Part shown: one piece after another, positions 238 to 15,852 of the stretch
Position numbering within the stretch: the first letter of the stretch is position 1
Layout: each line of letters begins with the position of its first letter
Origin: an uncultured Candidatus Saccharibacteria bacterium
GTDB taxonomy: Bacteria; Patescibacteriota; Minisyncoccia; Phycocordibacterales; UBA12088
Length of the DNA: 64,000 nucleotides
NCBI GenBank assembly: GCA_964411375.1
Contig: CAYPKR010000002.1
Location: 129,960-193,959 of the forward strand
Reading direction: 5' to 3'
Notes under the pieces: generated by a model
The model's input: only the letters and a program-made list of their open reading frames with translations
What the model was told of the DNA's origin: nothing
Database searches by the model: none
Position numbers and translations under genes: made by a program

Positions 238-618
238 TTAATCACGCATTGTTTGCGGAGAATAATCGTTTGAGGCACCGCTCTCCATTCGCGGCATCAT
301 GTTGTTGTTTAAATGGTGCATGATCCAAAGTGATCCGCCAACCACAATTGTGATGATTATCAGAGTGAAAGAAATTGCGGCAATATTCCACCTCGCCGAC
401 TTCCCTTTTCCGATATGGAGGAAGAAGAAAAGTTGAATAAAAAACTGAATGAGCGCAAGAAGAATGATCCATCCCACAAGCAGATTTCCTGAAAGCATAT
501 GGCTCGCAACCGGCACATACGCCGCGAGCGTCAAAACAATTGAGAGAACAAATCCGATGGTGTACGACAAAAATGTTCCATCTGATTTCTCTGTAGTTGT
601 GTGAATGTTGGTATCCAT
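238..618 (-). CDS. cyoD: Cytochrome o/bo3 quinol oxidase subunit IV
   Basis: 126-aa protein with three hydrophobic helices. Its position after cyoC in the cyoABCD(E) order supports the call. Confidence 0.8.
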   Translation of the reverse strand: MDTNIHTTTEKSDGTFLSYTIGFVLSIVLTLAAYVPVASHMLSGNLLVGWIILLALIQFFIQLFFFLHIGKGKSARWNIAAISFTLIIITIVVGGSLWIMHHLNNNMMPRMESGASNDYSPQTMRD

Positions 619-620
619 AA

Positions 621-1223
621 TTACAAAGCGCCAAAAAGATAGACAAACGTGAAAATAAAAATCCAGATGATATCAAGGAAATGCCAGAATAGGCTGAAGC
701 AGGCGAGTTTTCGCATCGTCGATCCGGAAAGATCCCGAAGGAACACATGCGCCATAATGACAATCATCCACACGGAACCCAAGAAGACGTGGAGTCCGTG
801 TGTACCGACGAGCGCAAAAAATGCCGAGAGCGATGCACTCTCACGCCACGATGCACCTTCATGTACAAATTTGCCGAACTCATATACTTCCATTGAAACG
901 AACACGAGTCCGAGGATAAGTGTCACAATGAGTGAAATCAGTACCGCACTTTTCTTTCTTTGATGTGCAAATAAAAGCGCGAGTCCCGCAGTGAACGAAC
1001 TCGTGAGAAGTAGCATCGTCTCAATCAAGACAAATGGCAAACTAGAGAGTCCACCGACTGACGGCGCACCAAATGTATTTCCTCGAAGCACCGCAAACGT
1101 TGCAAAGAGCGCAGCAAAGAGTACGCAGTCACTTAAAATATAAATCCAAAAACCAAACGTCACTGCTTCGGTCTTTTCCCCTTCCGGATGATCAGCATGT
1201 AATTGTACGGAATGACTCGTCAT
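621..1223 (-). CDS. cyoC: Cytochrome o/bo3 quinol oxidase subunit III
   Basis: 200-aa polytopic membrane protein with a subunit-III-like sequence (HADHPEGEK...FGFWIYILSDCVLFA). It follows the subunit I gene. Confidence 0.85.
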   Translation of the reverse strand: MTSHSVQLHADHPEGEKTEAVTFGFWIYILSDCVLFAALFATFAVLRGNTFGAPSVGGLSSLPFVLIETMLLLTSSFTAGLALLFAHQRKKSAVLISLIVTLILGLVFVSMEVYEFGKFVHEGASWRESASLSAFFALVGTHGLHVFLGSVWMIVIMAHVFLRDLSGSTMRKLACFSLFWHFLDIIWIFIFTFVYLFGAL

Positions 1224-1225
1224 GA

Positions 1226-3199
1226 TTATTTGTTGAACTTCAAGGCTTCAATTTTTGCAATCTCGCTTCCTGGAAGTGTGTATTCGATTTTCTCTTCGAA
1301 TGACCTTGCAATAATACTCGTCACAATTCCAGCAATCGACACGACAACCAGCCACCACATCTGCCACACCATCCCAAAGCCAAAGAGAAAACTGAATCCG
1401 GCGATCATGAGCCCTACACCAGTATTTTTCGGCAAGTGAATGTCATCATATTTTGGAAGAAGTGTCGGGAGTTTCCCTTCACGTTTCATTTCCCAAAAGG
1501 CGTCGCGTTTTCCGCCGTCCGGTATGACTGCAAAATTATACTCTGGAGCGGGCGAGGAAGTGCTCCATTCAAGCGTGCGCGCATTCCATGGATCTCCGGT
1601 CGTATCGGTGCGCAATTTTCGATTCCGAATTCCTTCGAAAATTTGTACCACTTGGAGGAAAATCGCGAACGCGATAATACATGCGCCAATAGCGGCAACG
1701 ATGAGAAGCGAATGCCAACCAGTCGATGCATCGATATGATCAAGACGGCGAGTCATTCCCATGAGTCCGAGGACATAGAGCGGAATAAATGCGAGTACGA
1801 ATCCGATTATCCATGACCAAAATACCCACGTTCCGATCCGCTCCGACAATCGATATCCAAAAATCTTTGGCCACCAATACGCAAGTCCGGCAAAAAATCC
1901 GAACAAGACACCGCCAATTATCATGTTGTGGAAATGCGCGACGAGAAAGAGCGTGTTATGAAATTGAAAATCCACCCCTGGAATTGCCATGAGTACTCCG
2001 GTCATTCCCCCTATCGTGAACGTAACCAAAAATCCCATGAACCAGAGCATCGGCGTCGCAAAGGTGATCCGTCCGCGGAACATAGTGAAAAGCCAGTTGA
2101 ATACTTTGACGCCAGTTGGAATTGAAATCGCCATCGTCATGATGCCGAAAAATGCATTTACGTTTGCGCCTGCGCCCATCGTAAAAAAGTGATGGAGCCA
2201 CACCATGAACGACATGACAACGATCAAGAGTGTTGCGATAACCATCGACGTGTAGCCAAACAGTCGCTTTGCCGAAAAAACGGGGACAATTTCGGAAAAG
2301 ATTCCGAACGCCGGCAAGATAAGAATGTAGACTTCCGGATGCCCCCACGCCCAGATGAGATTGACGTACATCATAAGATTGCCACCTCCGTCTGCCGTAA
2401 AGAAATGCATACCGAGATATCGGTCGAGTGAAAGCGTTGCGAGTGTTGCGGTCAAAATTGGAAATGCGAATAAAACCAAAATCATTGAGCCTAAGCTCGT
2501 CCACACAAAAACCGGCATATTCATGAGTCGCATATTCGGCGTGCGCATTTTCACAATCGTTACGATGAAGTTTACTGCCGCGAGCAAAGTTCCTACTCCG
2601 GCAATCTGGAGTGCCCATATATAGTAGTCAACGCCCACTCCCGGAGAATACGCCATTTCAGAAAGCGGCGGATACGCGAGCCAGCCGGTCGCCGCAAATT
2701 CGCCGATAACCAGGGACGCGTTCACGAGCATCGCTCCTGCAACCGTCATCCAAAAACTAAAAGAGTTTAAAAATGGAAATGCGACATCACGTGCGCCGAT
2801 TTGGAGTGGAACGATACAATTCAACAGTCCAAACATAAACGGCATGGCGACGAAGAAAATCATGATAACGCCGTGCGCGGTAAATATTTGGTCATAATGA
2901 GATGCTTCGAGGAAACCGTTTGAAGTGCCAACTGCGATCGCTTGCTGGCCGCGCATCATTAAGGCATCGACTCCGCCACGAAAGAGCATTACTCCCGCAA
3001 GAACGAGATACATGATGCCGATTTTTTTTGCATCTACGCTCGTGAGCCATTCTTTCCATAGCCATCTAAATCGTTTGGTGTACCAGAGAATCGCAATCAC
3101 CGAAACACCTCCAAGCACAACCATCATCTGCGCGCCGGTTTCAATCGGGCCGTGAATGAAGGAATCGATCGTCAGTTTTCCAAATAAGGTTTCGAGCAT
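1226..3199 (-). CDS. cyoB: Heme-copper quinol oxidase subunit I
   Basis: 657 aa with about 14 TM segments and conserved subunit I signatures ([22 protein letters not shown], histidine ligands). Confidence 0.92.
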
Positions 3200-3201
3200 A
3201 A

Positions 3202-4143
3202 TTAATGTGTGTGCATTTCCATTCCATCCATTGAATGAGAATGTTCGCTACCAACTTCATCCATTTCCGGCATCATAAATTTGTGGATGATTGAATCGAA
3301 CATCCCATCTTGGACACCGCCATAATATTGTACTGGATTATCACTTCGTGGTTTCTTCAGTACTTCGTATTCATAGTCATTCAACGTTGACGAAGAATTC
3401 TGAACGCCTTCGAGCCACTTTGAAAAATCTTCTTCCGAGCGTACTTGTGCCGTAAACACCATGCCTGCAAAATGCGGACCGCTAAAGTTTGCCGACGAGC
3501 CGCGATAATCACCAACCTTGTCTGCGATCAAATGAAGCGGCGTCTGCATTCCGGTCATTGCATATATTTGTCCGCCAAGTTGTGGAATCCAAAATGAATT
3601 CATCGGCGCATCTGCAGTAATTTTGAAATTGACTGGCGTGTCTACTGGAAACTGCACGAAATTCACCGTCGCAATGTGTTCATTTGGATAGATAAAAAGC
3701 CAGCGTGATGGAAGCGCGACCACTTGGATTTCAATCGGTGCAACTTCCGATTCGAGCGGCTTGTATGGATCAAGATCGTGTGTTGAGCCCCACGTAAGCG
3801 CACCAAGAACCAAAATAATTTCAAATGGAATCGCCCACCAAATGAGTTCGTCCATTTTTGCATGCTCCCAATCCGGTGTGTACGTGGCCGATGTATTCCC
3901 TGCCCGATAATGCCATGCAAAATAAAACGCGAGAATAAAAACGGGAATCACGACAATGAGCATAAGAAGGACTGCATTAATCATGAGCGTACGCTCTTTG
4001 GATGCGATGAGTCCATGCGGTTGTAAAATCGGAATCGGGTGTCCAAGCGTCAAAAATGCCAAGAGCCCCGCAAACGCGAGCGATGCAAATATAAAAATGA
4101 AAAGCTGGATCCGATGCCTCATCCTATGTGGAAAGTATAGCAT
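3202..4143 (-). CDS. cyoA: Quinol oxidase subunit II (CyoA-like) with a His/Met-rich C-terminal tail
   Basis: N-terminal TM anchors plus a cupredoxin-like periplasmic domain. The ORF-track start at 4206 would force translation through a perfect hairpin, so the start is trimmed to an internal Met (4143 or 4122). The C-terminus ends in ...[21 protein letters not shown]. Confidence 0.8.
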
Positions 4144-4157
4144 TCGGGTAGGACGGA

Positions 4158-4199
4158 AAATGCCGGATTTCGCCAAGGCGAAATCCGGCATTTTTCCTA
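4158..4199. terminator. Long perfect inverted repeat flanked by an A-tract and a T-tract; likely bidirectional intrinsic terminator between the VOC gene and cyoA
   Basis: GGAAAATGCCGGATTTCGCC-AAGG-GGCGAAATCCGGCATTTTTCC, a stem of about 18 bp. Confidence 0.5.
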
Positions 4200-4212
4200 C
4201 CTTCATTCCCTC

Positions 4213-5155: not shown

Positions 5156-5658
5156 AGAGGTGCGTTAATTGATACACGGGCAGTATATCACGCGAAGATG
5201 AGGGCTTCTTGAAGGAGAAAAAGGCGACGATTTTAGGCTCCCTTTAAGGGCGACAACGTACAAGCGAAACGCAACATACTTTCCTCTCTTAGTTCGAACC
5301 TAAAAATTACGTTGTGGCACAAGACTCAAAAGAAAAAAGAGCCAAAAGACCCTGTTTTTTTTACTTTGCTCGCCTTACTGAACGATTTTCGAACTTTTGA
5401 CTGGGCTTCCGAGTACAAATATCCGACTGTGGTACTCGACCAGATGAAAGGCCTGTTGGCCAAGTATGAGAACGTATAACCCCTGATTTTCCACCTGGTT
5501 GCCCCTGTGGCGAGCGTTCATGCACGGGACGACGATTGACACACTTCGCACCCTCGACCACCACGTTGCCCCGATTTGAACCCGTGGCGCAAAACTGTGG
5601 GTAACTGCGCCAAAATGAGCTTGGCTTCGCTCGCAAAAGAGCATAGGGTCGGGTTGCG

Positions 5659-5970
5659 ATGGAAGAATCCGTGGACATCGACGCGGCCATCAAAGCCGCC
5701 AAAGATATACGACTTAAATACCGGAAAGGCACGCTCAATCCGCTCTCTTTGCTTCCGGAGCCGAAAGCCAAACTAAAAGCCGCTTTGAAAGATCGTATGA
5801 GACTCCTTGCGGGCGTATACATTTCACTCGCCAGTTTCGTCGAGGATGGCGACGTGCTCTTTGCCGAGCGCAATCCGAAGTCAAAGAAAACAAAACGAAT
5901 ATATCTCAAAGTCCTCGAGGACATGGAAACGGCGCAGAAAGAACTGCGCCGTTTTAAGTTGTTGGAGTAA
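5659..5970 (+). CDS. Hypothetical small protein (103 aa)
   Basis: Protein-like composition (MEESVDIDAAIKAAKDIRLKYRKG...). The first in-frame ATG follows an in-frame stop. It overlaps the 3' end of the convergent KAP gene by 17 nt. Confidence 0.35.
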   Translation: MEESVDIDAAIKAAKDIRLKYRKGTLNPLSLLPEPKAKLKAALKDRMRLLAGVYISLASFVEDGDVLFAERNPKSKKTKRIYLKVLEDMETAQKELRRFKLLE

Positions 5971-8900
5971 CTTCGGCTGTAGTAGCTGCCGCTTGCGCCA
6001 CCTCGGCAACATTATCATCCAAGACTTTATAAACCATCGGTATATATTTCTTATAGGATGCCTCGTCATTTCCTACGAACACAATTTTATCCTTGTCCTC
6101 AAGTTTAAGTGCTTTAAAGGCATCACCATGCTTTTGCCAAAAGGCAGCAAGTTTTACTTTATCTAGTACCTTCGTAAATTCATTGATACTTGGTACATAT
6201 TTCAATCCATCTTCTCGCGCAGAAGCAAACGCATTGGCGAAATTACGGAATAGATAATCGATAAAATATTCAGCATTTTGGGTTTTGGTTGGATCAAAAC
6301 ATACCTCAAATAAATAATTATTCACCGCATCTCTAATTCCCTGATTATCTCCAGTTCCGGCAGGATCATAGTAGCCGCATCCCGCCCCTAGGTTGATTTC
6401 AGCATTTGCCATTTGATAAAGAATGAATGCTCCGACTCTTGTCTTAAGTTCGATGGTTTTCTTCTCAAGATCTTCAACCTTGAAAACACCCTCAGATATT
6501 TTTTGATTTACAAAATCCCCGTATTTTCCAACAAGGTCGCTTGTCTCTAGAGCATCAATTTCTTCAAAGATATTTTTCTTTGGGACAATATAACGAGTAT
6601 TAAATATATCGAAGGCCTTTTGAGATATTTCTCTCATTTCTTCGCATGCAATATCTCTCGTAGAACCTTGTGTTGGAGCGTTCGGATTAGCATGTTGTGC
6701 TACAGCACGGGATAAATCAAAAATATCACCGCCACGGTCTGCGCTACACGATAATCTAAAAAGCATCAGGTCATGAACTCCTAGTACGCCTCTGCTTTCT
6801 TCCGAAAGCCTGCCGAGAACTCCGTTACCGGCATGTCGGCCGTCACCAAATATCCATTCAGCAATTTCTGCGATATGCGGCTCTACGTTGTTGGCATGTT
6901 TTCCTGCCGGATCAATCCAGCCAGCGTCATTGAGTAGCCTCGTGAGGAAATAATCGAGATTATGCCGTAATCCCATGCCCACATTCGGATCGCCCATTTC
7001 AAGCAATGAATATTCGGGTATCGTGTTTAAGAGATGATCAATAATTTCTGTTGCAATATCGTGCGGCAATTCTCGAGCATTATTTACCAATATGCGCCAT
7101 AGTCGCTCTCTAGGATATTCTCCCTCTGTATAGGCAAATTTTGGATCAGCAAAGGCCGAAGCAACAGTTGTTGTTTTATCTAGAATCTTTTCTCTCCATG
7201 ACATATAAAACCTATGTTGACCAATATCTACAGGTTTGGAGAGATTTACGATCAAATCCAAGTATGTCTCAAGATTTCTTCCATTCGTCCAGCCACCATT
7301 GAAACACGCAAGCGAAGTACGCACATCCTCCGGTACACTGTCGATGCGGGCATAGTCATTTCCTCGTGGGAAGCTTTCTCCGAGTGACTTGAGCCTTACA
7401 TCAACGTTAAATACTTGATCTAAAAGGAAACGTTGGTGACTATCTTTGGGAAATTGCTCAAGATATTCGTGGTAATAAGTCGAGTTCTTGTAGGTAGAGT
7501 CGCTGAAAGATGAGCGTCGTTGGCCATTAGTATCTTCCGGATAGCCATCTTCGTGAGGTAGCACGAGAGAAAAGAAACCGCGTCCACCTTTTGTTTCAGT
7601 ATCATATATTTTTCGAAAGACACTCGGATAGTGGATATAAATCAGCAATAGGTTAATAAGGTCTCTCTTGTCGAAATCGCTGTTTTGGAAATTAGTGTTT
7701 TGAAGATCAAACATCAAAACGGTATTTATAAGCCGCTTCAGTTTTCTAACATCTCCAATGAATGGAAGATACCGGTGGTAAATTGATGATTTGTATATAT
7801 CAAGTAAACCGCCCACCGCTTGCCGTACAGGAAGCGGGTCGACCAAGCTAGTCGTAAGCGTTTTTTCAAGATTGTCGGACACGTAGTTTGCCAGATCTGC
7901 CCGTTCCAAGTAAAGACTAATCTTTATATTCACAAACTTTTCTAAAAATTCACCAACCTTTTCTATATCCGGAGTTTCAGCTTCTAAAATGCCGATGTTT
8001 TCAGTGTCATAACAAATAACATAAGAGACGTTCGGAAATGCAAAGCTCTTTCTAATAACAAATAGGATTTCTTTTATTTCCTCAAAACTTATCCGGTCCA
8101 AATCGTCGATAACAATTATCACTTTCTTTGGAAAACGTTTAAGCACAGCACCTAAGTCATCACATGCTTCGTCGGCCGTGTAATCAACTGCAAACGATGG
8201 CAAAGTTAGTCCGAACAGAGAGAATCTGCTTATTTCTTTTAATAGTCGAGCGTAGCGTGAGATCAGCGGCTTAATTTCAGGAATGAAGGAGTCTTTCTGT
8301 ATTGCATGAATAAGTCCATCAATGAATATCTCAAGTAGGTTGGCTGTTCCGAGATAACGCAGAGGACTAAATTTGTATATGACAACCTCTCTTGCATGTT
8401 TCTCCTCCCAATATTCTTTGCAAAAGTTAATGAAAGTTGATTTTCCGATACCCCATGGCGCGTCCACGCCAAATACAAAGCTTTCAGGCGATCCACTATT
8501 AAAGACCTGCTCTGCGAACCTCTCTGCTTTTTCTGAAAAGTTAAGAAGATCGCTATCTTTGTTCTCTAATTCCTTATCTACAACAAACGATGAGTCGTTC
8601 TTTTTCTCATTCCAGATAAGTACTAACTGTCTCAACATTACAAGTATCCCCAAAATAAATGGAGCGGAAATAAGAGTAAGTATTTGAAGAATATTCAAGG
8701 ACGAGACAATTTTTATGTCCCAGTTTGATAAAAAACCTCCCCAAACTACACTTAACAAAATTCCAAAGACAAAAGCGACGACAACATCGATACGTCCACT
8801 TTTAGCAATCTTTTTAATATCGGAAAAGATGCCACGCGCCAGTAGGTATAAGATCAGCAAAGCAACTCCAAATAGAGATAGCGTTATAGCGGCACTCTCG

Positions 8901-9082
8901 TAATTACTAACTTCGATCCACTTATTGAGCTTATCTGAAAGCAGTAGTGATAAATGCCACACCTCTGCACTTAAGATACCTAAGAAGGCTGTTTTGATCA
9001 GCATTACCAAATTTGCCGTTATGATACGGAAATCGGAGAGAGTTTCTCCTAGTTTTTTGATAGATGGTTTAATTTCTCTCAT
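5954..9082 (-). CDS. KAP-family P-loop NTPase, membrane-anchored (defense-island NTPase)
   Basis: 1042 aa. About four hydrophobic helices precede the Walker A motif GVDAPWGIGKSTFINF. A Walker B motif VIIVIDDLDR follows, then a long helical C-terminal region, which is typical of KAP NTPases. The gene is A+T-rich. Confidence 0.8.
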   Translation of the reverse strand: MREIKPSIKKLGETLSDFRIITANLVMLIKTAFLGILSAEVWHLSLLLSDKLNKWIEVSNYESAAITLSLFGVALLILYLLARGIFSDIKKIAKSGRIDVVVAFVFGILLSVVWGGFLSNWDIKIVSSLNILQILTLISAPFILGILVMLRQLVLIWNEKKNDSSFVVDKELENKDSDLLNFSEKAERFAEQVFNSGSPESFVFGVDAPWGIGKSTFINFCKEYWEEKHAREVVIYKFSPLRYLGTANLLEIFIDGLIHAIQKDSFIPEIKPLISRYARLLKEISRFSLFGLTLPSFAVDYTADEACDDLGAVLKRFPKKVIIVIDDLDRISFEEIKEILFVIRKSFAFPNVSYVICYDTENIGILEAETPDIEKVGEFLEKFVNIKISLYLERADLANYVSDNLEKTLTTSLVDPLPVRQAVGGLLDIYKSSIYHRYLPFIGDVRKLKRLINTVLMFDLQNTNFQNSDFDKRDLINLLLIYIHYPSVFRKIYDTETKGGRGFFSLVLPHEDGYPEDTNGQRRSSFSDSTYKNSTYYHEYLEQFPKDSHQRFLLDQVFNVDVRLKSLGESFPRGNDYARIDSVPEDVRTSLACFNGGWTNGRNLETYLDLIVNLSKPVDIGQHRFYMSWREKILDKTTTVASAFADPKFAYTEGEYPRERLWRILVNNARELPHDIATEIIDHLLNTIPEYSLLEMGDPNVGMGLRHNLDYFLTRLLNDAGWIDPAGKHANNVEPHIAEIAEWIFGDGRHAGNGVLGRLSEESRGVLGVHDLMLFRLSCSADRGGDIFDLSRAVAQHANPNAPTQGSTRDIACEEMREISQKAFDIFNTRYIVPKKNIFEEIDALETSDLVGKYGDFVNQKISEGVFKVEDLEKKTIELKTRVGAFILYQMANAEINLGAGCGYYDPAGTGDNQGIRDAVNNYLFEVCFDPTKTQNAEYFIDYLFRNFANAFASAREDGLKYVPSINEFTKVLDKVKLAAFWQKHGDAFKALKLEDKDKIVFVGNDEASYKKYIPMVYKVLDDNVAEVAQAAATTAEVTPTT

Positions 9083-9147
9083 GCTTAATACATCAATTAT
9101 CCACTTTTTAAGTTGAGATGTAAAGAATTGTAAAGTATAATTCTATT

Positions 9148-9324
9148 ATGACAGGCAAAGAGTTCTACACCGCTCAAGAATTAGCCGATAAATTAGGGGT
9201 AAATATTATGACTATTTACCGCTATATCAAAGCTAAGAAATTCAAGGCCTATAAATTAGGTAAGGAATTCAGAATAGACAAAGCCGATTTCAAATCTTTC
9301 ATGGAAAAGGCAAAGACCATTTAA
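9148..9324 (+). CDS. Small excisionase/MerR-type HTH DNA-binding protein (59 aa); putative controller of the R-M operon
   Basis: Translation from ATG at 9148 gives MTGKEFYTAQELADKLGVNIMTIYRYIKAKKFKAYKLGKEFRIDKADFKSFMEKAKTI. The ORF is below the 60-aa cutoff of the supplied track. Its stop lies 3 nt before the methyltransferase start. Confidence 0.65.
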   Translation: MTGKEFYTAQELADKLGVNIMTIYRYIKAKKFKAYKLGKEFRIDKADFKSFMEKAKTI

Positions 9325-9327
9325 TTT

Positions 9328-11313
9328 ATGCAAACACTTCCCATTAATACTAAAACAATAGACCTGGAAGAAGCAGGGACTCTGCTCGGGGTTTCGGGCG
9401 CAACCATACGAAATTGGATCAGACATAGCTATATCACCCCTGAAAACACCACTAATAAGAAAATGGTGTTTAAACATGCCGAGATACAAGAGCTGAAAAA
9501 CAAAATCGAATCTGGAGAAATAAGTCGTTTGAGCAAACGTGCCAACAAAAGGAATTCATCAAATACTTTTATTCCTGATGAGTATGCCGACAACGACGAG
9601 GTCTATGTACTTGTAAAAGAGATTATCGATATTTATCGATCAAATGATCTCAACAAAGATAGCGTCATATTTTCCTTATTGCTTAACGTACTTAAGAACG
9701 TTGGATTAGTTGAATACCCGACGACTTTTGATATTTCGAAGATCACCTTTAAAAGCAAAACAGTAGAACAAGAGCTTAGTTGGTGGCTAAAAAACGCGCA
9801 GCATAATTTGGCCTCAAATAACTATAGCGATCTCTTGAATATTGATCTGCCAAAGGTTAATGACATCGTTGGACTCATTTATCAGTCCTTAAGTAATGAG
9901 GGGGATAAAGCAGAAGGCGGTTCTTATTACACTCCCAAGGTGGTAGTGGATGAGGCTGTAGAAAGATATATTAAACAGGACTTACTTGTTCTCGATCCAT
10001 GCTGTGGTACAGGTCAGTTTCTTCTATCGGCCTCTAAGAAAATTAAAAATCCAAGCAATATTTGGGGTTTCGATATAGATGAAAAAGCCGTAAGAATAGC
10101 GAGATTGAATCTCTTGGCTCAATACCCAAGGGAAGACTTTGTACCAAATATTTTTCATAGAAATACACTTCTTTCTTCGAGAGGTCTTTTTGGGAACGAT
10201 ACTCCTGAATTTGATGTAGTAATAACCAATCCGCCTTGGGGAGTACATTTTTCTTCCTCTGAAATTAGAGAGCTGGGGGCACTCTATCCATATATAAATT
10301 CCAACGAAGCTTTCTCATATTTTATCGCTAGAGGCTTAGAATTCTTAAAAGAAGGCGGCGTTTTGTCGTACATTCTTCCAGAATCAATTTTGAATGTTAA
10401 ATCTCACAGAGACATTCGAGAGATACTGCTTACAAAAACAAGAATAAAGAAAGTTAAGCATCTTGATAGAGTCTTTAAAAATGTTTTTACGCCGGTGATT
10501 AGGCTTGATGTGGCTAAATTAACTCCTGAAGATACAGATGAGTTTGAGGTTGAAAAAGCAGAATTGAAACACACAATTAAGCAATCCCGCTTGAAGAATA
10601 ACAATGATTATTTGTTTGATGTATTTAATGGAGATCAAGAACTAGGTATTTTTGAGAAAGTCTATAGTGTCGATCATACAACTCTTAAAAATAACGCCGA
10701 ATGGGCATTGGGCGTAGTAACCGGAGACAACAAGAAACATCTTAAAGAGACTAAATCGAGTGAATTTGAACCCATTTTAACCGGCAAAGAAATAAAGAGG
10801 TTTATAGTGGCTCAACCAAAGAATTTTATTAAATTTGAACCTGGTAAATTCCAGCAGGTAGCTCCGGAATATAAATATAGGGTGCCAGAGAAACTCATTT
10901 ATAAGTTCATCTCAAAGGACTTGGTATTTTCCTATGACAATCAGCAAACCCTTACATTAAATAGCGCAAATATTCTTATCCCGGAGGTAGAAAATTACCC
11001 AGTAAAAACTATTCTCGCGCTATTTAATTCATCGCTTTATCAATTCATATACCAGAAAAAGTTTGGTGCTATAAAAATCTTGAGAAGTGATCTTGAACAA
11101 TTACCGCTCCCCATCCTTCCAGCGAATCAGCATGAAAGATTGAACTTACTTGTTGAGAGATTGCTTGATACTGATCTTGGATTAGAGGAAAGAAAATCGG
11201 AATATCTCAAACTTGATAATGCTATATTATCCCTGTTTTCCTTAAGCAAGGTTGAACAGGAATATATAAGATCAAACGTAAAAATGTCGGACAAATTATT
11301 AAACTTTCAATAA
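9328..11313 (+). CDS. Type II N6-adenine DNA methyltransferase, gamma class (Eco57I/TaqI-like) with an N-terminal HTH
   Basis: 661 aa. Motif I is VLDPCCGTGQFL, motif IV is NPPWG, and a C-terminal TaqI-like specificity region is present. The N-terminus LEEAGTLLGVSGATIRNWIRH is an HTH. Confidence 0.9.
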   Translation: MQTLPINTKTIDLEEAGTLLGVSGATIRNWIRHSYITPENTTNKKMVFKHAEIQELKNKIESGEISRLSKRANKRNSSNTFIPDEYADNDEVYVLVKEIIDIYRSNDLNKDSVIFSLLLNVLKNVGLVEYPTTFDISKITFKSKTVEQELSWWLKNAQHNLASNNYSDLLNIDLPKVNDIVGLIYQSLSNEGDKAEGGSYYTPKVVVDEAVERYIKQDLLVLDPCCGTGQFLLSASKKIKNPSNIWGFDIDEKAVRIARLNLLAQYPREDFVPNIFHRNTLLSSRGLFGNDTPEFDVVITNPPWGVHFSSSEIRELGALYPYINSNEAFSYFIARGLEFLKEGGVLSYILPESILNVKSHRDIREILLTKTRIKKVKHLDRVFKNVFTPVIRLDVAKLTPEDTDEFEVEKAELKHTIKQSRLKNNNDYLFDVFNGDQELGIFEKVYSVDHTTLKNNAEWALGVVTGDNKKHLKETKSSEFEPILTGKEIKRFIVAQPKNFIKFEPGKFQQVAPEYKYRVPEKLIYKFISKDLVFSYDNQQTLTLNSANILIPEVENYPVKTILALFNSSLYQFIYQKKFGAIKILRSDLEQLPLPILPANQHERLNLLVERLLDTDLGLEERKSEYLKLDNAILSLFSLSKVEQEYIRSNVKMSDKLLNFQ

Positions 11314-11316
11314 AAC

Positions 11317-12057
11317 ATGCAACTTCTAAAGGAAAAACTTAATCAGTTAATCGATGAGCTCTCCGCAGATAAAAAGGAGATGATACGGGGACGGCTTGCC
11401 GATCTTATCTCCGTATACCCGTTCAATGAGTACGAATATATAATCTCCTCCCTTATGGGTTTTGGAAAGATTACGCTCGATGATTACCTTGAAATCAGGG
11501 ATGAATATATCGCACGAAACATGTATCTCTATATCTTCGAAATAGGCTCGCCTCGCGGTTTCGGAGAGCAATGGGCTCAAGGTCATCTTAAAGAGTTGGT
11601 TCCGGAGCTAGTAAAGCCCACAAAGAAAGTAGAGGAAAACTACAAGGGAGATTATGATTTTTTATTACCCAATCAGGATGATCTGATAAGAATTGAAGTA
11701 AAAGCCTCGAGAGCAGTTGATGGAGCTAGTGCTGAACCTTTGTATGTAAAAGCTCTTGCTTTCGAAAACAAGCAACCTTTCTGGATGAACTTTCAACAGA
11801 TTAAGCCAGCTCACTGTGATGTGTTTGTGTGGGTTGCTGTGTGGAGAGACGTGATCAAATACTGGGTGCTCTCATCGGATGAAGTAAAAGCAAATAAATA
11901 CTATTCTAAAGGCCAACATAGAGGAAATGTTGGAGAAGGCCAGTTGCATATTAAGGATGACAATATTAAGGATTTTCAGATTTACGAAGTCAAACCAAAC
12001 GAACTTAAAGACGCTATCGTTAGAGCGTACGAGCGACAGAAAGGTATCACTAAGTAA
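11317..12057 (+). CDS. Putative type II restriction endonuclease (PD-(D/E)xK-like)
   Basis: 246 aa, starting 4 nt after the methyltransferase stop. It contains a D...DDLIRIEVKAS pattern compatible with a PD-ExK active site. No other identifiable family signature was seen. Confidence 0.5.
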   Translation: MQLLKEKLNQLIDELSADKKEMIRGRLADLISVYPFNEYEYIISSLMGFGKITLDDYLEIRDEYIARNMYLYIFEIGSPRGFGEQWAQGHLKELVPELVKPTKKVEENYKGDYDFLLPNQDDLIRIEVKASRAVDGASAEPLYVKALAFENKQPFWMNFQQIKPAHCDVFVWVAVWRDVIKYWVLSSDEVKANKYYSKGQHRGNVGEGQLHIKDDNIKDFQIYEVKPNELKDAIVRAYERQKGITK

Positions 12058-12110
12058 CGATGCCTTTTGAGCATTTCGGATATGAGACAAAAGTGTCTTA
12101 TTTCTGAAAA

Positions 12111-12140
12111 GCTGACTGGAAGTTAGCTTAAACCTTACTT
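12111..12140. other. Hairpin (8-bp stem CTGGAAGT/ACTTCCAG) at the junction between the A+T-rich R-M operon and the GC-richer recombinase module
   Basis: ctggaagttagcttaaaccttacttccag. There is no clear T-tract. Confidence 0.3.
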
Positions 12141-12150
12141 CCAGTACAAA

Positions 12151-12813
12151 ATGATTATGAAGATGAAAAAGGCCTTACTGGCCAGGACATATACACTCAA
12201 TACGAACCGGTCCGTGGGTAAAGCAACCACGTATCTGTTTTCTATATCAGCCATTACCGGCGAATTGCGATCCGCGCTTAAGGATTTTGCGGATGTTGAG
12301 CGGCCGGCCGAGATCGTAAAGACCAGCGATCCGGCTATTCAAGCTCTCGTCGGCGCACTCAATCGAAACAGCGAAAGCATCGAATCCATGACACGTGCCT
12401 ATCTTACTGCTTTGAATAAAATTGCAGATTTGGAAACGAGCGTTGCGAAACTCACGGCCGAAGGCGCAGCGTACGGCCTTGCCGGCAAGCGAACTAAACC
12501 AGCAGACAAAAAGACAATCTATCTTTCGAACGATGGCGACTTATACCGCGAGCCGAAAGCGAAGCATTGTTATGCGATGGGCAAGGAAAAGCAACGCCAG
12601 AAGATCGTGCGGGTCCTACTTGAAAGGAAGACCTATGTGCCCACGGATGCGCTCGTGGAGCTCTCCGGCAGTAAGAATCGCAAATCACTGCACAACGCGA
12701 AACTCATGATCAATCGCAAAGTGCGGTACGCGCTGGGTATTGAAAACTTTATCGTCGGCCGCGCGGTAAGCGGCTACAAACTCAATCCGGAATACAAAAT
12801 AAAGCAGGTGTAG
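12151..12813 (+). CDS. DNA-binding protein with a C-terminal OmpR/PhoB-type winged helix
   Basis: 220 aa. The C-terminus KIVRVLLERKTYVPTDALVE...NRKVRYALGIENFIVGRAVSGYKL matches the Trans_reg_C wing pattern (..RLR.KL.....I.TVRG.GY.L). The GC content is higher than in the adjacent R-M genes. Confidence 0.5.
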   Translation: MIMKMKKALLARTYTLNTNRSVGKATTYLFSISAITGELRSALKDFADVERPAEIVKTSDPAIQALVGALNRNSESIESMTRAYLTALNKIADLETSVAKLTAEGAAYGLAGKRTKPADKKTIYLSNDGDLYREPKAKHCYAMGKEKQRQKIVRVLLERKTYVPTDALVELSGSKNRKSLHNAKLMINRKVRYALGIENFIVGRAVSGYKLNPEYKIKQV

Positions 12814-13210
12814 CTCTGGTGTAGTTAATAAGTTGGTACTGCAAGCAGCAAAACGGCTGCTTTTTTCGTATCTGGCTACACGTCCGCAGTATGGTAAACG
12901 CCCATTCATGCTTGCAACAATAAAAGCGTGTGAGAGGAAGTTAATGACAATGAAAATGCCACATGCAAAACAATTATTACAAAACCGCCGATCTGGCATT
13001 GGTCGCGGTGCTTTTATTATTCATTCCTGATTCTCTGGAGGTCGTGGATCGGGGAAATCCGCACAAGGTGCTCTTTTGTTTCGGCAAGAGCCCTGACTTG
13101 GATTCTCTGGTGAAGCGATACTGGAATCGCGAGCTTGTGGTCGAACCGCAGGCGTTCTTCAACCAGCTCAAACAGGTCAAAGTACGGATTTATGCCGAGG
13201 ACTAAGACCT

Positions 13211-13420
13211 GTGAAAATCAAACCGGAAACGCTGGAGAAACTCCGCGCGATCCTGAAGCACGACTTCAGTCTTGAGGTAAGCGACCAAGACCTGCACGAC
13301 ATCGCCTTCAATCTGGTGCGGTACTACGACGCGCTATCGCGGTTTTACGTCGAGGACATCACGAGCGGCCGCACGCTCATCGAACCCTATGACACCCAAC
13401 CCAAGCGAACAAAAGCATAA
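13211..13420 (+). CDS. Hypothetical small protein (69 aa)
   Basis: ORF in the higher-GC recombinase module. It overlaps the next ORF by 32 nt in a different frame. Confidence 0.3.
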   Translation: MKIKPETLEKLRAILKHDFSLEVSDQDLHDIAFNLVRYYDALSRFYVEDITSGRTLIEPYDTQPKRTKA

Positions 13421-13961
13421 GGTCCGAGACTACCGCGAAGCGCCGTTTGCCTACCAAGACAAACCAGCCTTGCGCTTTATGCGCCAGGAATGGATCGACA
13501 AAAGAATAAGCGACGATGCATATCGCAACCTGCGCAACGTGTACTGTGCGCTTACCGAGATCGCATCGAATAAAGCGAGCCAAACCATCGAAGCGTCGAA
13601 TAAGACGATGCTTCTCTACTGTGGGCTCAAAGACTGGCGGACGATTAAGAAATGCTTGGACACGCTCGAAGTGTGGGCGTTTATCGCGATCACCAAAGTT
13701 CGCGGCGCGGATGCCAAGTTCAAGCCGCGAAGCATCACACTTCTTTCCGTCCTACATCTGGCGCAGGATGGTGGCCGATCTGCACGTGAAGCCATACGGC
13801 AAAGCACGCACACAGGCTGCGAGGCAGAAGATAAAGAAGCTAAGGGATTAAAAGAAATTAAAGAAAATTATAAAGAAACTAGCGGTGACTTCGAGAAAAT
13901 AAAGGAAATTCGGCAAATGAAGGCTCAATTACTGAAGAAAATGAGTATGCGAGGCAAATAA
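13389..13961 (+). CDS. Hypothetical protein (190 aa), cargo of the element
   Basis: Protein-like composition with a Lys/Glu-rich C-terminus. No recognisable motif. Confidence 0.4.
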   Translation: MTPNPSEQKHKVRDYREAPFAYQDKPALRFMRQEWIDKRISDDAYRNLRNVYCALTEIASNKASQTIEASNKTMLLYCGLKDWRTIKKCLDTLEVWAFIAITKVRGADAKFKPRSITLLSVLHLAQDGGRSAREAIRQSTHTGCEAEDKEAKGLKEIKENYKETSGDFEKIKEIRQMKAQLLKKMSMRGK

Positions 13962-14039
13962 TCATCTAACCAGAACCCACCAGTATTAACCGTTTTTCGG
14001 CAAGATTCGGCAGTAAACGGCAATGATTCGAGCAAAATA

Positions 14040-14070
14040 ATTACAGGATTCTACAGGAAATTACAGGGTT
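14040..14070. repeat. Three direct TACAGG repeats at 10-11 bp spacing upstream of the serine recombinase gene
   Basis: attacaggattctacaggaaattacagggtt. This is preceded by a near-repeat cggcaagattcg / cggcaatgattcg. Confidence 0.4.
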
Positions 14071-14175
14071 TTGAGGAAAAAGGAATGTGGGTAACTCAAG
14101 CTTAGCAGCTGCAAGAAAAGAGCATATGGTGTGTCTGGTACCGAACGTCGAATTCGAACCGCTTTTATCAACTAA

Positions 14176-15792
14176 ATGATTATGACTATGAATCAAGAAA
14201 ATCAACCCTTACGCGCCGTCGGCTACGCTCGCGTGTCGTCCAAGGATCAGGAAGACACCGGCTATTCGCTGCCGGCGCAAGAAAAGCTTCTGCGGGATTA
14301 TGCCGACCGGAATGGCTACGATCTGGTCAAAGTATTTGCCATTCAAGAATCGGCCGCGGGCAAGGTCCAGCGCAAGATATTTCACGAAATGATGGAGTAT
14401 GTGTCGAAAGCGAAAATCACTACGATCTTCGTCGAGACGACTGACCGCCTTACGCGCAACTTCGCCGATGTGCCGGTTATCGACGAGTGGATTCTTGCCG
14501 ACGAGAAGCACATGATCCATCTCGTCAAAGAAAGCTGCACGCTCCATAAAGACTCGAAATCTCACGAATGGTTTATGTGGCGCGTGAAAGTTGCTACAGC
14601 CGAGTACTACATCCGGCTCCTTTCCGAGAACGTGAAGAAAGGCCAGAAAGAAAAGCTGGCGCAAGGCTGGCTACCGACACGGCCGCCGCTTGGCTATAAA
14701 ACCATCGGCGAGAAAGGACATAAAATCCATGTGCTCGATGAGGACAAAGCGCCGATCGTCAAAAGAATGTTCGAACTGTATGCTACCAACATCAGCTCGA
14801 CCAAAAAGCTTGCCGATGAAATGTACCGGCTCGGTATGCGCTCGCGTGGAGGCAACAAGGTAAGCCACTCACGCGTGCACCAGCTCCTTGGCGATCCGTT
14901 CTATTACGGTATGAACCGCTGGAACGGCAAAGTCGCGCAAGGCAATCATGAGCCTCTGATCACCAAAGAATTATTTATGCGATGCCAAGACATCATGCAC
15001 AGCAACGGCACGCCAAAATACAACAAACACAATTCGCTTTTTAAGAACGTGTTTAAGTGCGAGGAATGCAAAGGCCGCGTAACATGGGAGATACAGAAAG
15101 GCCACTGGTACGGACACTGCAACCATTACAAGAATTGCACGCAGCGCGAATATGTCCGGCAAGAAACGGTCGATGAGCAAGTCATGGAAAATATCGAGCA
15201 GTTAAGCTCAAAGCATGACGAAGCCATCGAGCATATGCTCACCTGGGTCCAAGAAGCTCTCAAGGAAAGCCACAGCGAGGAAATAGAATTTAGGGAAAAG
15301 GCCACCGGCGAGCTTGAACGACGTTATCAAATGGCAACCCAGCGGCTCGACAAGATATATGACGATAAGATCGACGGCAAAATCAGCGAGGAGTTCTATC
15401 AGAAAAAGTATGCTCAATACAAGCTTGAGCAGGAAGAAGTGATGGATAGCCTCAATAAGCATAAGAATGCCAATCTCAAGTACTACGACATGGGCTCGAC
15501 GTTCTTGCAGATGGCCAAGGAGGCACGAAGGATTTACCTCAACCGAAGCACTATCGAGATGGTCGATGACAAGAAGCTCTTAATGTCTCTATTATTTTCG
15601 AACTCGACCATAAATAGCAAGAAAGTTGATATTTCATACCATAAAGCCTTCAAAATCATCTCCGATCGCGTGATGCAGATGTTGGGAGAAAAAATACCCA
15701 AAAATAAAACTTTCGAACCGCCAAAAAAGCCCGTCAATAAAGGAAAAACACCAGCTTTCGCTGATGTTAATCCTATCTGGCTCCGGCGGTAG
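14176..15792 (+). CDS. Large serine recombinase (resolvase catalytic domain + recombinase domain + zinc ribbon)
   Basis: N-terminal catalytic domain LRAVGYARVSSKDQ (catalytic Ser). A Cys-rich zinc beta-ribbon CEECKGRVTW...GHCNHYKNC is present. The protein is 538 aa. The last 5 codons are encoded by the 3' end of the tRNA-Asn gene. Confidence 0.9.
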   Translation: MIMTMNQENQPLRAVGYARVSSKDQEDTGYSLPAQEKLLRDYADRNGYDLVKVFAIQESAAGKVQRKIFHEMMEYVSKAKITTIFVETTDRLTRNFADVPVIDEWILADEKHMIHLVKESCTLHKDSKSHEWFMWRVKVATAEYYIRLLSENVKKGQKEKLAQGWLPTRPPLGYKTIGEKGHKIHVLDEDKAPIVKRMFELYATNISSTKKLADEMYRLGMRSRGGNKVSHSRVHQLLGDPFYYGMNRWNGKVAQGNHEPLITKELFMRCQDIMHSNGTPKYNKHNSLFKNVFKCEECKGRVTWEIQKGHWYGHCNHYKNCTQREYVRQETVDEQVMENIEQLSSKHDEAIEHMLTWVQEALKESHSEEIEFREKATGELERRYQMATQRLDKIYDDKIDGKISEEFYQKKYAQYKLEQEEVMDSLNKHKNANLKYYDMGSTFLQMAKEARRIYLNRSTIEMVDDKKLLMSLLFSNSTINSKKVDISYHKAFKIISDRVMQMLGEKIPKNKTFEPPKKPVNKGKTPAFADVNPIWLRR

Positions 15793-15852
15793 GATTCGAA
15801 CCTACAACCAACGCGTTAACAGCGCGCTGCTCTACCATTGAGCTACACCGGA
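15778..15852 (-). tRNA. tRNA-Asn (anticodon GTT)
   Basis: Minus-strand sequence: TCCGGTGTAGCTCAATGGTAGAGCAGCGCGCTGTTAACGCGTTGGTTGTAGGTTCGAATCCTACCGCCGGAGCCA. It has a cloverleaf with a 7-bp acceptor stem, GTT anticodon, GGTTCGAATCC T-arm and an encoded CCA. A TAGAAT -10 element lies about 10 nt upstream. Confidence 0.85.

Follow-up and report, generated by a model that had tools for sequence, protein, structure and literature searches.

Serine integrases are major tools of genome engineering and are thought to land inside protein genes. They normally integrate within protein-coding genes and disrupt them, a very short attachment (att) core is normal for them, and tRNA sites are typical of tyrosine integrases, whose islands duplicate 25-76 bp of the tRNA 3' part and so have long direct repeats (PMC8092301). 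Here we describe an integrative element in which the gene of a large serine recombinase (LSR) runs into the 3' end of a tRNA-Asn(GTT) gene. It lies in a 64,000-nt stretch of contig CAYPKR010000002.1 (GenBank assembly GCA_964411375.1), the whole of which is referred to below as the window; related genome loci that were compared with the window carry L-numbers (L003, L011 and so on). From sequence comparison we consider it very likely that window positions 5369..15780 form one integrative element with these boundaries, inserted by its LSR at the 3' end of tRNA-Asn. An insertion of this kind had been proposed in a first-pass annotation of the window, and it is supported by left and right attachment sites (attL and attR), a split recombinase tail, a related copy, an unoccupied syntenic tRNA-Asn and recurrence across a family.

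Among described systems, the phage-type LSRs (phiC31, Bxb1, A118/LI, TP901-1 and SprA of SPbeta) resemble the window recombinase in their domain order of resolvase, recombinase and zinc ribbon with a coiled-coil insert, in their full-length fold, and in having a tiny shared core and a 5-bp shift of the attP motif (PMC3783163). Unlike in these phages, the target here is the 3' end of a tRNA gene that is left intact, attP lies inside the recombinase open reading frame (ORF), and the trailer half of attB is unconserved; sequence identity to solved LSRs is only ~15-20%. In architecture the element is similar to the streptococcal rumA integrative conjugative elements (ICEs), whose att site lies in the integrase 3' end, so that integration swaps the 3' parts of integrase and target and alters the integrase C-terminus, and whose direct repeats measure 2-21 bp (Ambroset et al. 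2016, PMC4701971). Tail exchange is therefore not new in principle. The rumA elements differ in being Firmicutes ICEs with conjugation modules that target a protein gene, which acquires an altered C-terminus; an antisense terminator or T-loop mimicry is undescribed for them. Tyrosine-integrase islands at tRNA and tmRNA genes (P4-like; Islander and TIGER collections) share the landing site in a small essential RNA that is kept functional, tandem accretion and defence cargo, but they use another enzyme family and chemistry, and here only G-CTC is shared between the ends, without duplication of the tRNA.

Pairings of a serine recombinase with a tRNA integration site have rarely been reported; one is that of the Paracoccus phage vB_PamS_Pami6, whose predicted site is in tRNA-Met (PMC6536676). 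This is a single alphaproteobacterial phage, compared here by description only, and its text describes no family-wide pattern, ORF/attP overlap or terminator. In SSV-type archaeal integrases, the gene is split by integration. In mycobacteriophages with integration-dependent immunity, attP lies inside the repressor gene (PMC8092301). Both are like the window element in having an att site inside a gene of their own, with the form of the protein reporting the integration state, but both use tyrosine integrases, the altered protein is a repressor or the integrase is fully split, and the switch function has been shown there. The literature that we searched, which is incomplete and can give only absence of evidence, describes no serine recombinases at Patescibacteria tRNA genes, no family-wide tRNA-Asn target, no T-loop serving as zinc-ribbon-domain motif and no antisense terminator in a recombinase gene; the tRNA target, the antisense terminator and the spread through Patescibacteria appear to be undescribed before.

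The enzyme is a large serine recombinase, with all testable features of sequence, fold and att sites present. It matches the Pfam families PF00239 (Resolvase; 8.4e-22, residues 14-164, with the motifs YARVSSKDQ and DRLTRN), PF07508 (Recombinase; 1.6e-18) and, just below the curated cut-off, PF13408 (Zn_ribbon_recom; 4.5e-5). Across 50 homologues, R8, S10, D79, R80 and R83 are invariant and C284, C287, C304 and C310 are invariant or nearly so (numbering of the long-form homologue P0062). An AlphaFold2 model of P0062 (mean predicted local distance difference test score, pLDDT, 81.5) has long helices at residues 337-441, and Foldseek returned full-length matches of this model to the SPbeta, Bxb1, phiC31 and LI integrases, with E-values down to 7e-18. 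By analogy with these enzymes, the recombinase would catalyse unidirectional attP x attB recombination and would require a directionality factor for excision.

ARAGORN finds one tRNA gene in the whole window, tRNA-Asn(GTT) (Rfam tRNA score 73.6 bits, 15781..15852). The coordinates of this gene (15778..15852) and of the recombinase ORF (14176..15792) agree with the earlier observation that the ORF ends 15 nt inside the opposite-strand tRNA at its CCA end, the overlap being 15778-15792. The ORF closes with TGG CTC CGG CGG TAG, read as W, L, R, R and stop. TGG complements the CCA end (74-76), the Leu536 codon CTC is the complement of G73, A72 and G71, the two Arg codons face acceptor positions 70-65, and the stop codon falls in the T-stem (64-62). 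The first-pass description of WLRR and stop as encoded by the acceptor stem is thus nearly right. Codons up to L536 are element DNA, and R537, R538 and the stop are tRNA DNA. Of the tRNA's CCA, the A and the middle C (15778-15779), together with the new trailer, are element DNA, and C74 (15780) lies within the shared G-CTC core.

The element measures 10,412 bp and extends from the G-CTC of attL (5368-5371) to that of attR (15780-15783). The two sites, ..TTTTTTTTACTTTG-CTC-GCCTTACTGAACGATTTTCGAAC.. at attL and ..AATCCTATCTGG-CTC-CGGCGGTAGGATTCGAACC.. at attR, share G-CTC alone, and the G-CTC junction recurs in 7 attL sites. No second copy of the 28-nt tRNA 3' end occurs in the window when up to 3 mismatches are allowed, and general repeat finding detected no long direct repeat in it. 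The missing tRNA repeat fits a serine mechanism, so that the element falls outside the class of tyrosine-type islands. What had been called a classic footprint at the tRNA 3' end accordingly lacks a copy of the tRNA 3' segment: an att core repeat does exist at the far boundary, as had been anticipated, but it is the 4-nt G-CTC and not a repeat of that segment. The extent first given to the element, 12100..15852, covers its conserved core only.

The far boundary is marked by the missing end of the recombinase itself. A tblastn search with the long tails of homologues against the window identified LLALLNDFRTFDWASEYKYPTVVLDQMKGLLAKYENV followed by a stop at 5366..5479, on the recombinase strand and 8.7 kb upstream of the gene start, where a six-frame search of the window with simple amino-acid patterns for the tail gave no match. 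When the two parts are joined at the CTC codon, the tail codons (5369..5479) are in frame with L536 and yield a continuous 571-aa ORF whose tail resembles that of long-tail homologues; the free form would read ..NPIWL-ALLNDFRTFDW..YENV and the integrated form, of 538 aa, reads ..NPIWL-RR-stop. A tail upstream of its own gene is impossible by simple insertion, which points to site-specific recombination at an attP inside the ORF. The predicted junctions are ..AATCCTATCTGGCTCGCCTTACTGAACGA.. / ..GATGTTAATCCTATCTGGCTCGCCTTACTGAACGATTTTCGAAC.. for attP and ..TTTTACTTTGCTCCGGCGGTAGG.. / ..CCCTGTTTTTTTTACTTTGCTCCGGCGGTAGGATTCGAACC.. for attB. The same split, with the parts 8-11 kb apart, is found in L011, L034, L036, L038 and L039; L054 has an upstream tail too, but this locus is a tandem array in which the long tail of the recombinase is a hybrid.

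The recombinase belongs to a family of 2003 homologues, all named members of which come from Patescibacteria. A search for related loci, restricted to one genome per species, yielded 61 loci, nearly all labelled as Patescibacteria metagenome-assembled genomes (MAGs); the few other bin names are probably unreliable. In 48 loci the 75 nt that precede this Leu codon can be aligned without gaps, and 36 of these run in the same frame from CTC into a tRNA acceptor and T-arm, a recurrence which argues that the ORF/tRNA overlap is not due to chance. ARAGORN recognises tRNA-Asn(GTT) in 29 of the 36 and misses some of the target tRNAs because a group I intron interrupts them, as in at least five of the remaining loci. 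These introns lie on the - strand at 11652-12044 in L009, 11651-11935 in L011, 11642-11926 in L019, 11615-11831 in L037 and 11636-11891 in L035, the split tRNAs being presumably tRNA-Asn; four introns score at or above the Rfam gathering score, and that of L035 scores 34.9 bits. Among the best 120 homologues, the sequence after ..P-I-W-L reads into DSN or GSN (the T-loop GAT TCG AAC in antisense) in 44 and ends within two residues of the core, as in the window, in 32; long tails are recognised in 14 by the pattern L-x-x-W-[DN]-[DE]-F-R-T-x-x-W-x5-[YF]-P-x4-L-x-Q-x3-L-L and in ~10 more by eye.

Two different recombinase elements occupy one tRNA-Asn in the tandem arrays of L054 (10001-11614 and 16915-18573) and L067 (10001-11662 and 17000-18499), and also in L068 and L022. 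In L054 and L067 the first recombinase has a hybrid long tail taken from the P' arm of the second element, and the second recombinase is fused to tRNA-Asn, which indicates that an occupied site (attR) can still be a target. At the family's edge, the distant members L065 and L066 adjoin phage-like cI/ImmA/Cro/Rep_O modules. In L017, a tail of another class (PTPVAILNILEDFGYLAQLK..) follows the recombinase (5757-5867) and is repeated 1 kb downstream (6746-6835); tRNA-Asn lies a further 5.3 kb on, and no second recombinase was detected in this locus.

The right half-sites of the element follow the geometry of known LSR sites. For LI integrase, the zinc-ribbon-domain motif spans bp 11-19 of attB but lies 5 bp further out, at bp 16-24, in attP (PMC3783163). 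In the window, numbered from the C of CTC (position 0), the host B' arm has TTCGAAC at +14..+20, as the tRNA T-loop (15795-15801; 11 nt from CTC), and the element P' arm has it at +19..+25, where it covers the codons D-F-R-T (5388-5394, within TTTCGAAC at 5387-5394; 16 nt from CTC). This B'/P' arrangement recurs in L011, L038, L039, L027 and L041, and other loci have weaker versions of the P' motif (..AGAAC); the left half-sites (P and B) have no clear motif. The shift places the crossover in or next to CTC. Since the stretch from CTC to the T-loop (acceptor and T-stem) differs freely from host to host, and the B arm (the tRNA trailer) shows no conservation among them, recognition seems to rest on universal features of tRNA-Asn, namely G71-G73 and the T-loop TTCGAAC. 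The unconserved B arm probably explains both the wide host range and tandem stacking on an occupied site. A further TTCGAAC inside the recombinase ORF, at -69..-63, is identical in 47 of the 48 aligned loci (it is absent in L062), keeps its spacing in a recombinase of only 25% identity, and is also seen in L054 (~18,505) and in L065 and L066. The third of its codons varies (P/H/L/Q), which indicates a constraint on nucleotides and not on protein.

We propose the following route of integration. The LSR would recombine attP with attB at the very 3' end of the host's tRNA-Asn gene and so insert the element, the strands crossing within G-CTC, in which CTC is at once the complement of G71, A72 and G73 and the Leu536 codon. 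On the host side it would recognise G71-G73 and the T-loop of tRNA-Asn, and on the element side the same TTCGAAC 5 bp further out. Integration would remove the last 35 recombinase codons, leave these at the distal, left-hand end of the element, and join the truncated gene to the antisense of the tRNA acceptor stem, shortening the product from 571 to 538 aa. The tRNA would in turn receive a new trailer, an encoded CCA (in this lineage) and a new antisense intrinsic terminator.

The exchanged tail appears to be under purifying selection. Between the window and L011 the detached tail is 93-97% conserved, and among the 28 codons beyond the P' arm 14 are identical, 9 differ synonymously and 5 non-synonymously. 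The F-R-T motif retains its Arg whether the codon is CGA or AGA, and the W..[YF]P..Q..LL pattern persists in recombinases that are only 45-50% identical. Together, these features argue for selection on the protein. In the AlphaFold2 model of the long-form homologue, a disordered linker (488-500) leads into four short helices (502-537; pLDDT ~70). The tails of integrated forms are arbitrary, extending 0-11 residues past the core as set by the tRNA sequence, so that we take the long form to be the functional protein of the free element. The long-tailed protein may therefore be the integration-competent form and its exchange may have a regulatory role, although we consider a functional exchange less likely than not.

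A strong competitor, to which we assign a little less than an even chance, is that the C-terminus exchange is neutral and follows simply from the overlap of attP with the stop region, the long tail having no role as protein and its conservation stemming from the P' arm or from neighbouring regulatory DNA. The best conserved tail residues (D-F-R-T) indeed coincide with the DNA motif TTTCGAAC, but conservation reaches 25 codons past a normal 25-bp half-site (W-x5-[YF]-P-x4-L-x-Q-x3-LL), even among the recombinases of 45-50% identity. By-product status would likewise suit the arbitrary integrated tails, the tandem arrays, which tolerate hybrid tails from unrelated neighbours, and a tail modelled with a confidence of just ~70; the two codons used for the conserved Arg and the excess of synonymous over non-synonymous changes between the window and L011 speak against it. 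A functional exchange could go as far as a built-in state switch, which we regard as doubtful: the 571-aa form would exist only when the element is excised, its ~35-aa helical mini-domain would license integration, the tail-less integrated enzyme would differ in activity or stability, and the upstream TTCGAAC would be an accessory site.

At the tRNA itself, integration leaves the body untouched and replaces the trailer with element DNA. The Trp codon TGG of the element supplies the encoded CCA in this lineage, not in all lineages; the empty sites have no encoded CCA, reading GAG/CAGATT in L064 and GAG/CAAAGT in the reconstructed window site. The hairpin and T-run that resemble the native terminator of the tRNA are orphaned: they are host DNA on the B arm side of attL, ~15 nt past the old tRNA end and directly left of the attL core. 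The new trailer contains a predicted intrinsic terminator, which begins 11-12 nt past the tRNA end, antisense to the Lys-rich linker codons (..NKGKTPAFADV..) of the recombinase, and consists of a stem of 7-10 bp, a loop reading GAAA or CAAA, and a T-run. The stem covaries within the family: 35 unique trailer sequences contain 16 different stems with pairing kept, and in 28 of them at least 6 of the following 10 nt are T. Folding is more stable on the tRNA strand than on the recombinase-mRNA strand in 34 of the 35 (mean -18.1 vs -12.6 kcal/mol), and the G-T pairs of the stem fit the tRNA strand only. RNAalifold found no structure in the ungapped trailer alignment because the stems are out of register, and per-sequence hairpin analysis was used instead. 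From these sequence features we infer that the element's terminator replaces the displaced native one and may limit antisense transcription into the recombinase gene.

The same hairpin might instead be a binding site of the recombinase (a P-arm palindrome) or a structure of the recombinase mRNA, and not a tRNA terminator, but we think this unlikely. The stem varies freely in sequence with only its pairing retained; the G-T pairs and the greater stability single out the tRNA strand, the T-run is on that strand only, and the distance of 11-12 nt from the tRNA end suits a terminator. The hairpin does sit inside the 25-35 bp to the left of the crossover in which the P half-site has to lie, and its loop (TTTC/TTTT-G) resembles the TTCG of the P' motif; the roles of terminator and binding site are, however, compatible with each other.

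Comparison with related genomes supports a mobile element at this site. L011, which comes from a Paceibacterota MAG, has just two stretches of similarity to the window, 5367-5969 (87%) and 12148-15811 (80%): the similarity begins exactly at the predicted left boundary, and the cargo between the two matches and both flanks differ. The first-pass annotation had suggested looking among relatives for an empty tRNA-Asn site, whose absence would have spoken against an insertion, and L064 provides one. In this nearest relative (CoxI 87% identical) an identical tRNA-Asn is flanked, as in the window, by cyo and glycosidase/SET genes, with no recombinase or element beside it; the right flank is 94.7% identical to the window, and the homology ends at the tRNA 3' end (15775). 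The predicted attB 29-mer has a single metagenome match, an unoccupied tRNA-Asn in L063, which we rejected as an empty allele of this host since the contig comes from an unrelated organism. The recombinase genes of L027 and L035 are 94.5% identical and split directly after CTCCCC, one leading into the tRNA and the other into a long tail. Terminal-overlap tests for circularity of short recombinase contigs were all negative, and exact look-ups of the recombinase and the right-flank protein returned no record, start calls differing.

Several observations weigh against the element as we read it. L064 is not a perfect empty allele, its left flank having a VTT-domain gene in place of the glyoxalase gene. 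An exact search of viral contigs for the circular (attP) junction of the window element gave no match, and a single-sequence scan of a viral contig collection revealed no relatives of the recombinase. In databases, a contiguous long-tail ORF is often the hybrid junction of a tandem array (L054, L067 and L068); because of these arrays, such ORFs are in themselves no proof of excised circles, and we rejected them as excised forms in general. In L027 (11540-12966), 135 nt after the stop of the long-tail gene, there is a host rpoD without the end of region 4, followed by dnaG, a junction that may reflect rearrangement, deletion of a tandem partner or a chimeric MAG. No directionality factor was recognised in the element. 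The left half of attP is weakly dyad-symmetric with the right half, too weakly to fix the central dinucleotide, so that any exact crossover dinucleotide is presumptive, as is present-day activity of the window copy.

Some of these points would also suit a fixed, immobile relic, with the tRNA overlap a fossil and the recombinase inactive or repurposed, which we nevertheless find quite improbable. The exact attP search detected no excised form, a directionality factor was not recognised, and both public contigs with an identical flanking protein carry the element; the genome itself is also represented in SRR12487045. The recombinase is nonetheless intact, with all invariant catalytic and zinc-binding residues present, and the detached tail is an intact reading frame with synonymous changes in excess. 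Moreover, recombinases of 85-90% identity occur in bins named as Harrison-, Magasanik- and Falkowbacteria and Paceibacterota beside different tRNA-Asn sequences, which points to recent transfer.

The element has a conserved left end (the tail codons), a swappable cargo bay and a conserved right-hand core (12148-15790), which comprises ORF220, a DUF5659 protein, ORF69, ORF190 and the recombinase and is found in 18-26 loci (Table 1). The position of attL, left of the KAP nucleoside triphosphatase (NTPase) and restriction-modification genes, supports these defence genes as cargo of the same element, as the first-pass annotation had suspected. That the mobile element consists of the 3.7-kb core only (~12.1-15.8 kb), with the KAP and restriction-modification genes and the tail fragment as a separate island or an old tandem partner minus its recombinase, is highly improbable. 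In its favour, G+C content drops sharply from the core (47-50%) to the defence genes (36-41%), similarity of many loci to the window begins at ~12148 and real tandem arrays occur at tRNA-Asn (L054 and L067). Against it, the interval 12058-12150 contains neither a P'-like junction nor a remnant of a recombinase nor a CTC..TTCGAAC site, L011 combines this left end and this core with different cargo, a KAP homologue is linked to the same core in L003, and six other loci have the tail 8-11 kb upstream of the recombinase.

Table 1. Features of the tRNA-Asn element in the window, with positions counted from the first nucleotide of the 64,000-nt stretch
Feature	Position	Strand	Evidence and remarks
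Orphaned native terminator-like hairpin and T-run of tRNA-Asn	5338..5353	-	Terminator scan: AGGGTCTTTTGGCTCT, then TTTTTCTTTT
attL core G-CTC, crossover region	5368..5371	+	Host trailer to the left, element P' arm to the right; L011 similarity from 5367
Detached recombinase 3' end: P' arm of attP and 36 codons (LALLNDFRTFDWASEYKYPTVVLDQMKGLLAKYENV, then stop)	5369..5479	+	tblastn with long tails of homologues, E 7e-5
Left-end ORF, 103 aa	5659..5970	+	Common to the L011 element only, 93% aa identity
Cargo: KAP-family P-loop NTPase, PifA-like, 1042 aa	5954..9082	-	PF07693, 3.4e-38; PADLOC PifA, 3.8e-29
Cargo: HTH_17 protein, 58 aa, excisionase/MerR-like fold	9148..9324	+	PF12728, 1.8e-13; PHROG 66
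Cargo: type II N6-adenine DNA methyltransferase (N6_Mtase, Eco57I, TaqI_C)	9328..11313	+	PADLOC MTase_II, 2.7e-125
Cargo: type II restriction endonuclease	11317..12057	+	PADLOC REase_II, 5.2e-75
Core: ORF220, 220 aa	12151..12813	+	Conserved in 18 loci; no family or fold match
Core: DUF5659 protein, 80 aa	12963..13205	+	PF18903, 1.3e-9; in 26 loci
Core: ORF69, 69 aa	13211..13420	+	Conserved in 24 loci
Core: ORF190, 190 aa	13389..13961	+	Conserved in 20 loci; no family match (Pfam, PHROGs)
Large serine recombinase, integrated (short) form, 538 aa	14176..15792	+	Pfam; PHROG 95 integrase, 1.1e-76
Invariant TTCGAAC, T-loop-like, codons F-E-P	15712..15718	+	62 nt upstream of the core, inside the ORF
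Predicted antisense intrinsic terminator for tRNA-Asn	15747..15768	-	Terminator scan: stem AACATCAGC/GCTGGTGTT, loop GAAA, then TTTCCTTTAT
tRNA-Asn(GTT), target gene	15778..15852	-	ARAGORN and Rfam; body is host DNA
attR core G-CTC	15780..15783	+	P arm (recombinase codons ..NPIW) to the left; B' arm (tRNA acceptor and T-arm) to the right

Neither capsid, terminase, tail or lysis genes nor relaxase, oriT, coupling protein or type IV secretion genes were detected in 5369-15780 by Pfam and PHROGs searches; without capsid, terminase, relaxase and secretion genes, the element is neither a recognisable prophage nor an ICE or integrative and mobilizable element. The HTH_17 protein is probably a controller of the restriction-modification system. 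Cargo in relatives includes type III restriction-modification, an AlwI-type enzyme with a RadC-Dam fusion, a LexA-S24-methyltransferase fusion, a KAP NTPase, a PIN-domain protein and a protease. The fusions are encoded at 5304-6908 in L011 (LexA DNA-binding domain, S24 peptidase and N6/N4 DNA methyltransferase) and at 5620-7440 in L038 (RadC and a Dam-type methyltransferase).

Within the core, the DUF5659 protein is the recombinase's most constant companion, present in both tandem elements of L054 and in L067, and is a candidate partner, directionality factor or regulator. Sequence and structure searches gave no family or fold for ORF220 and ORF190. The label of an OmpR-type winged-helix protein, which ORF220 had received, found no support: Pfam gave no OmpR-type match even at E<=10, nor did a sequence search of the PDB, hhalign against the PhoB C-terminal domain (an approximate query sequence) returned a probability of 0.2%, and the AlphaFold2 model has a pLDDT of 41.8. 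The description of the module as richer in G+C than its surroundings is correct for its left neighbour only: G+C content is 47-50% in the 12-15 kb module, 36-41% in the defence genes (6-12 kb) and ~43-51% over most of the remaining window. A 22-nt near-repeat (19/22) spans the start codons of ORF220 (12146-12167) and the recombinase (14171-14192), both of which begin M-I-M-K/T-M, and may be a shared translation or regulatory signal.

Outside the element, the window includes the full operon of a bo3-type quinol oxidase (238-4206), which encodes subunits II, I, III and IV; a UbiA-family gene lies past the edge of the window. Homologues occur in other Parcubacteria MAGs, and we refer the window genome to Parcubacteria/Paceibacterota. 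Two 18-nt arms separated by 2 nt form a perfect inverted repeat (AAAATGCCGGATTTCGCC / GGCGAAATCCGGCATTTT; 4157-4194) where the cyoA-like gene (3202..4206, - strand) has its 5' end.

The findings describe a large, coherent LSR family with a tRNA landing site, in which the universal T-loop is read as the zinc-ribbon-domain motif and the new trailer and terminator brought by the element would keep the tRNA functional. Protein, att site and terminator are packed into the same 60 bp, an unusually dense overlap of information. On the host side, apparently just the conserved features of tRNA-Asn are needed, and near-identical enzymes are found across several Patescibacteria lineages; this targeting of conserved features, together with the wide spread, makes the recombinase a candidate integration tool for the hard-to-manipulate Patescibacteria. 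The exchange of the tail opens the question of whether an integrase can sense its own integration state. If the state switch were true, direction would be set partly without a separate factor and, together with the recognition of universal tRNA-Asn features, the family would amount to a pan-Patescibacteria integration system of a design undescribed for serine integrases. For the organisms themselves, the family explains how defence islands, among them restriction-modification systems and a PifA-like NTPase, move about and accumulate in tandem at a single hotspot in very small genomes.

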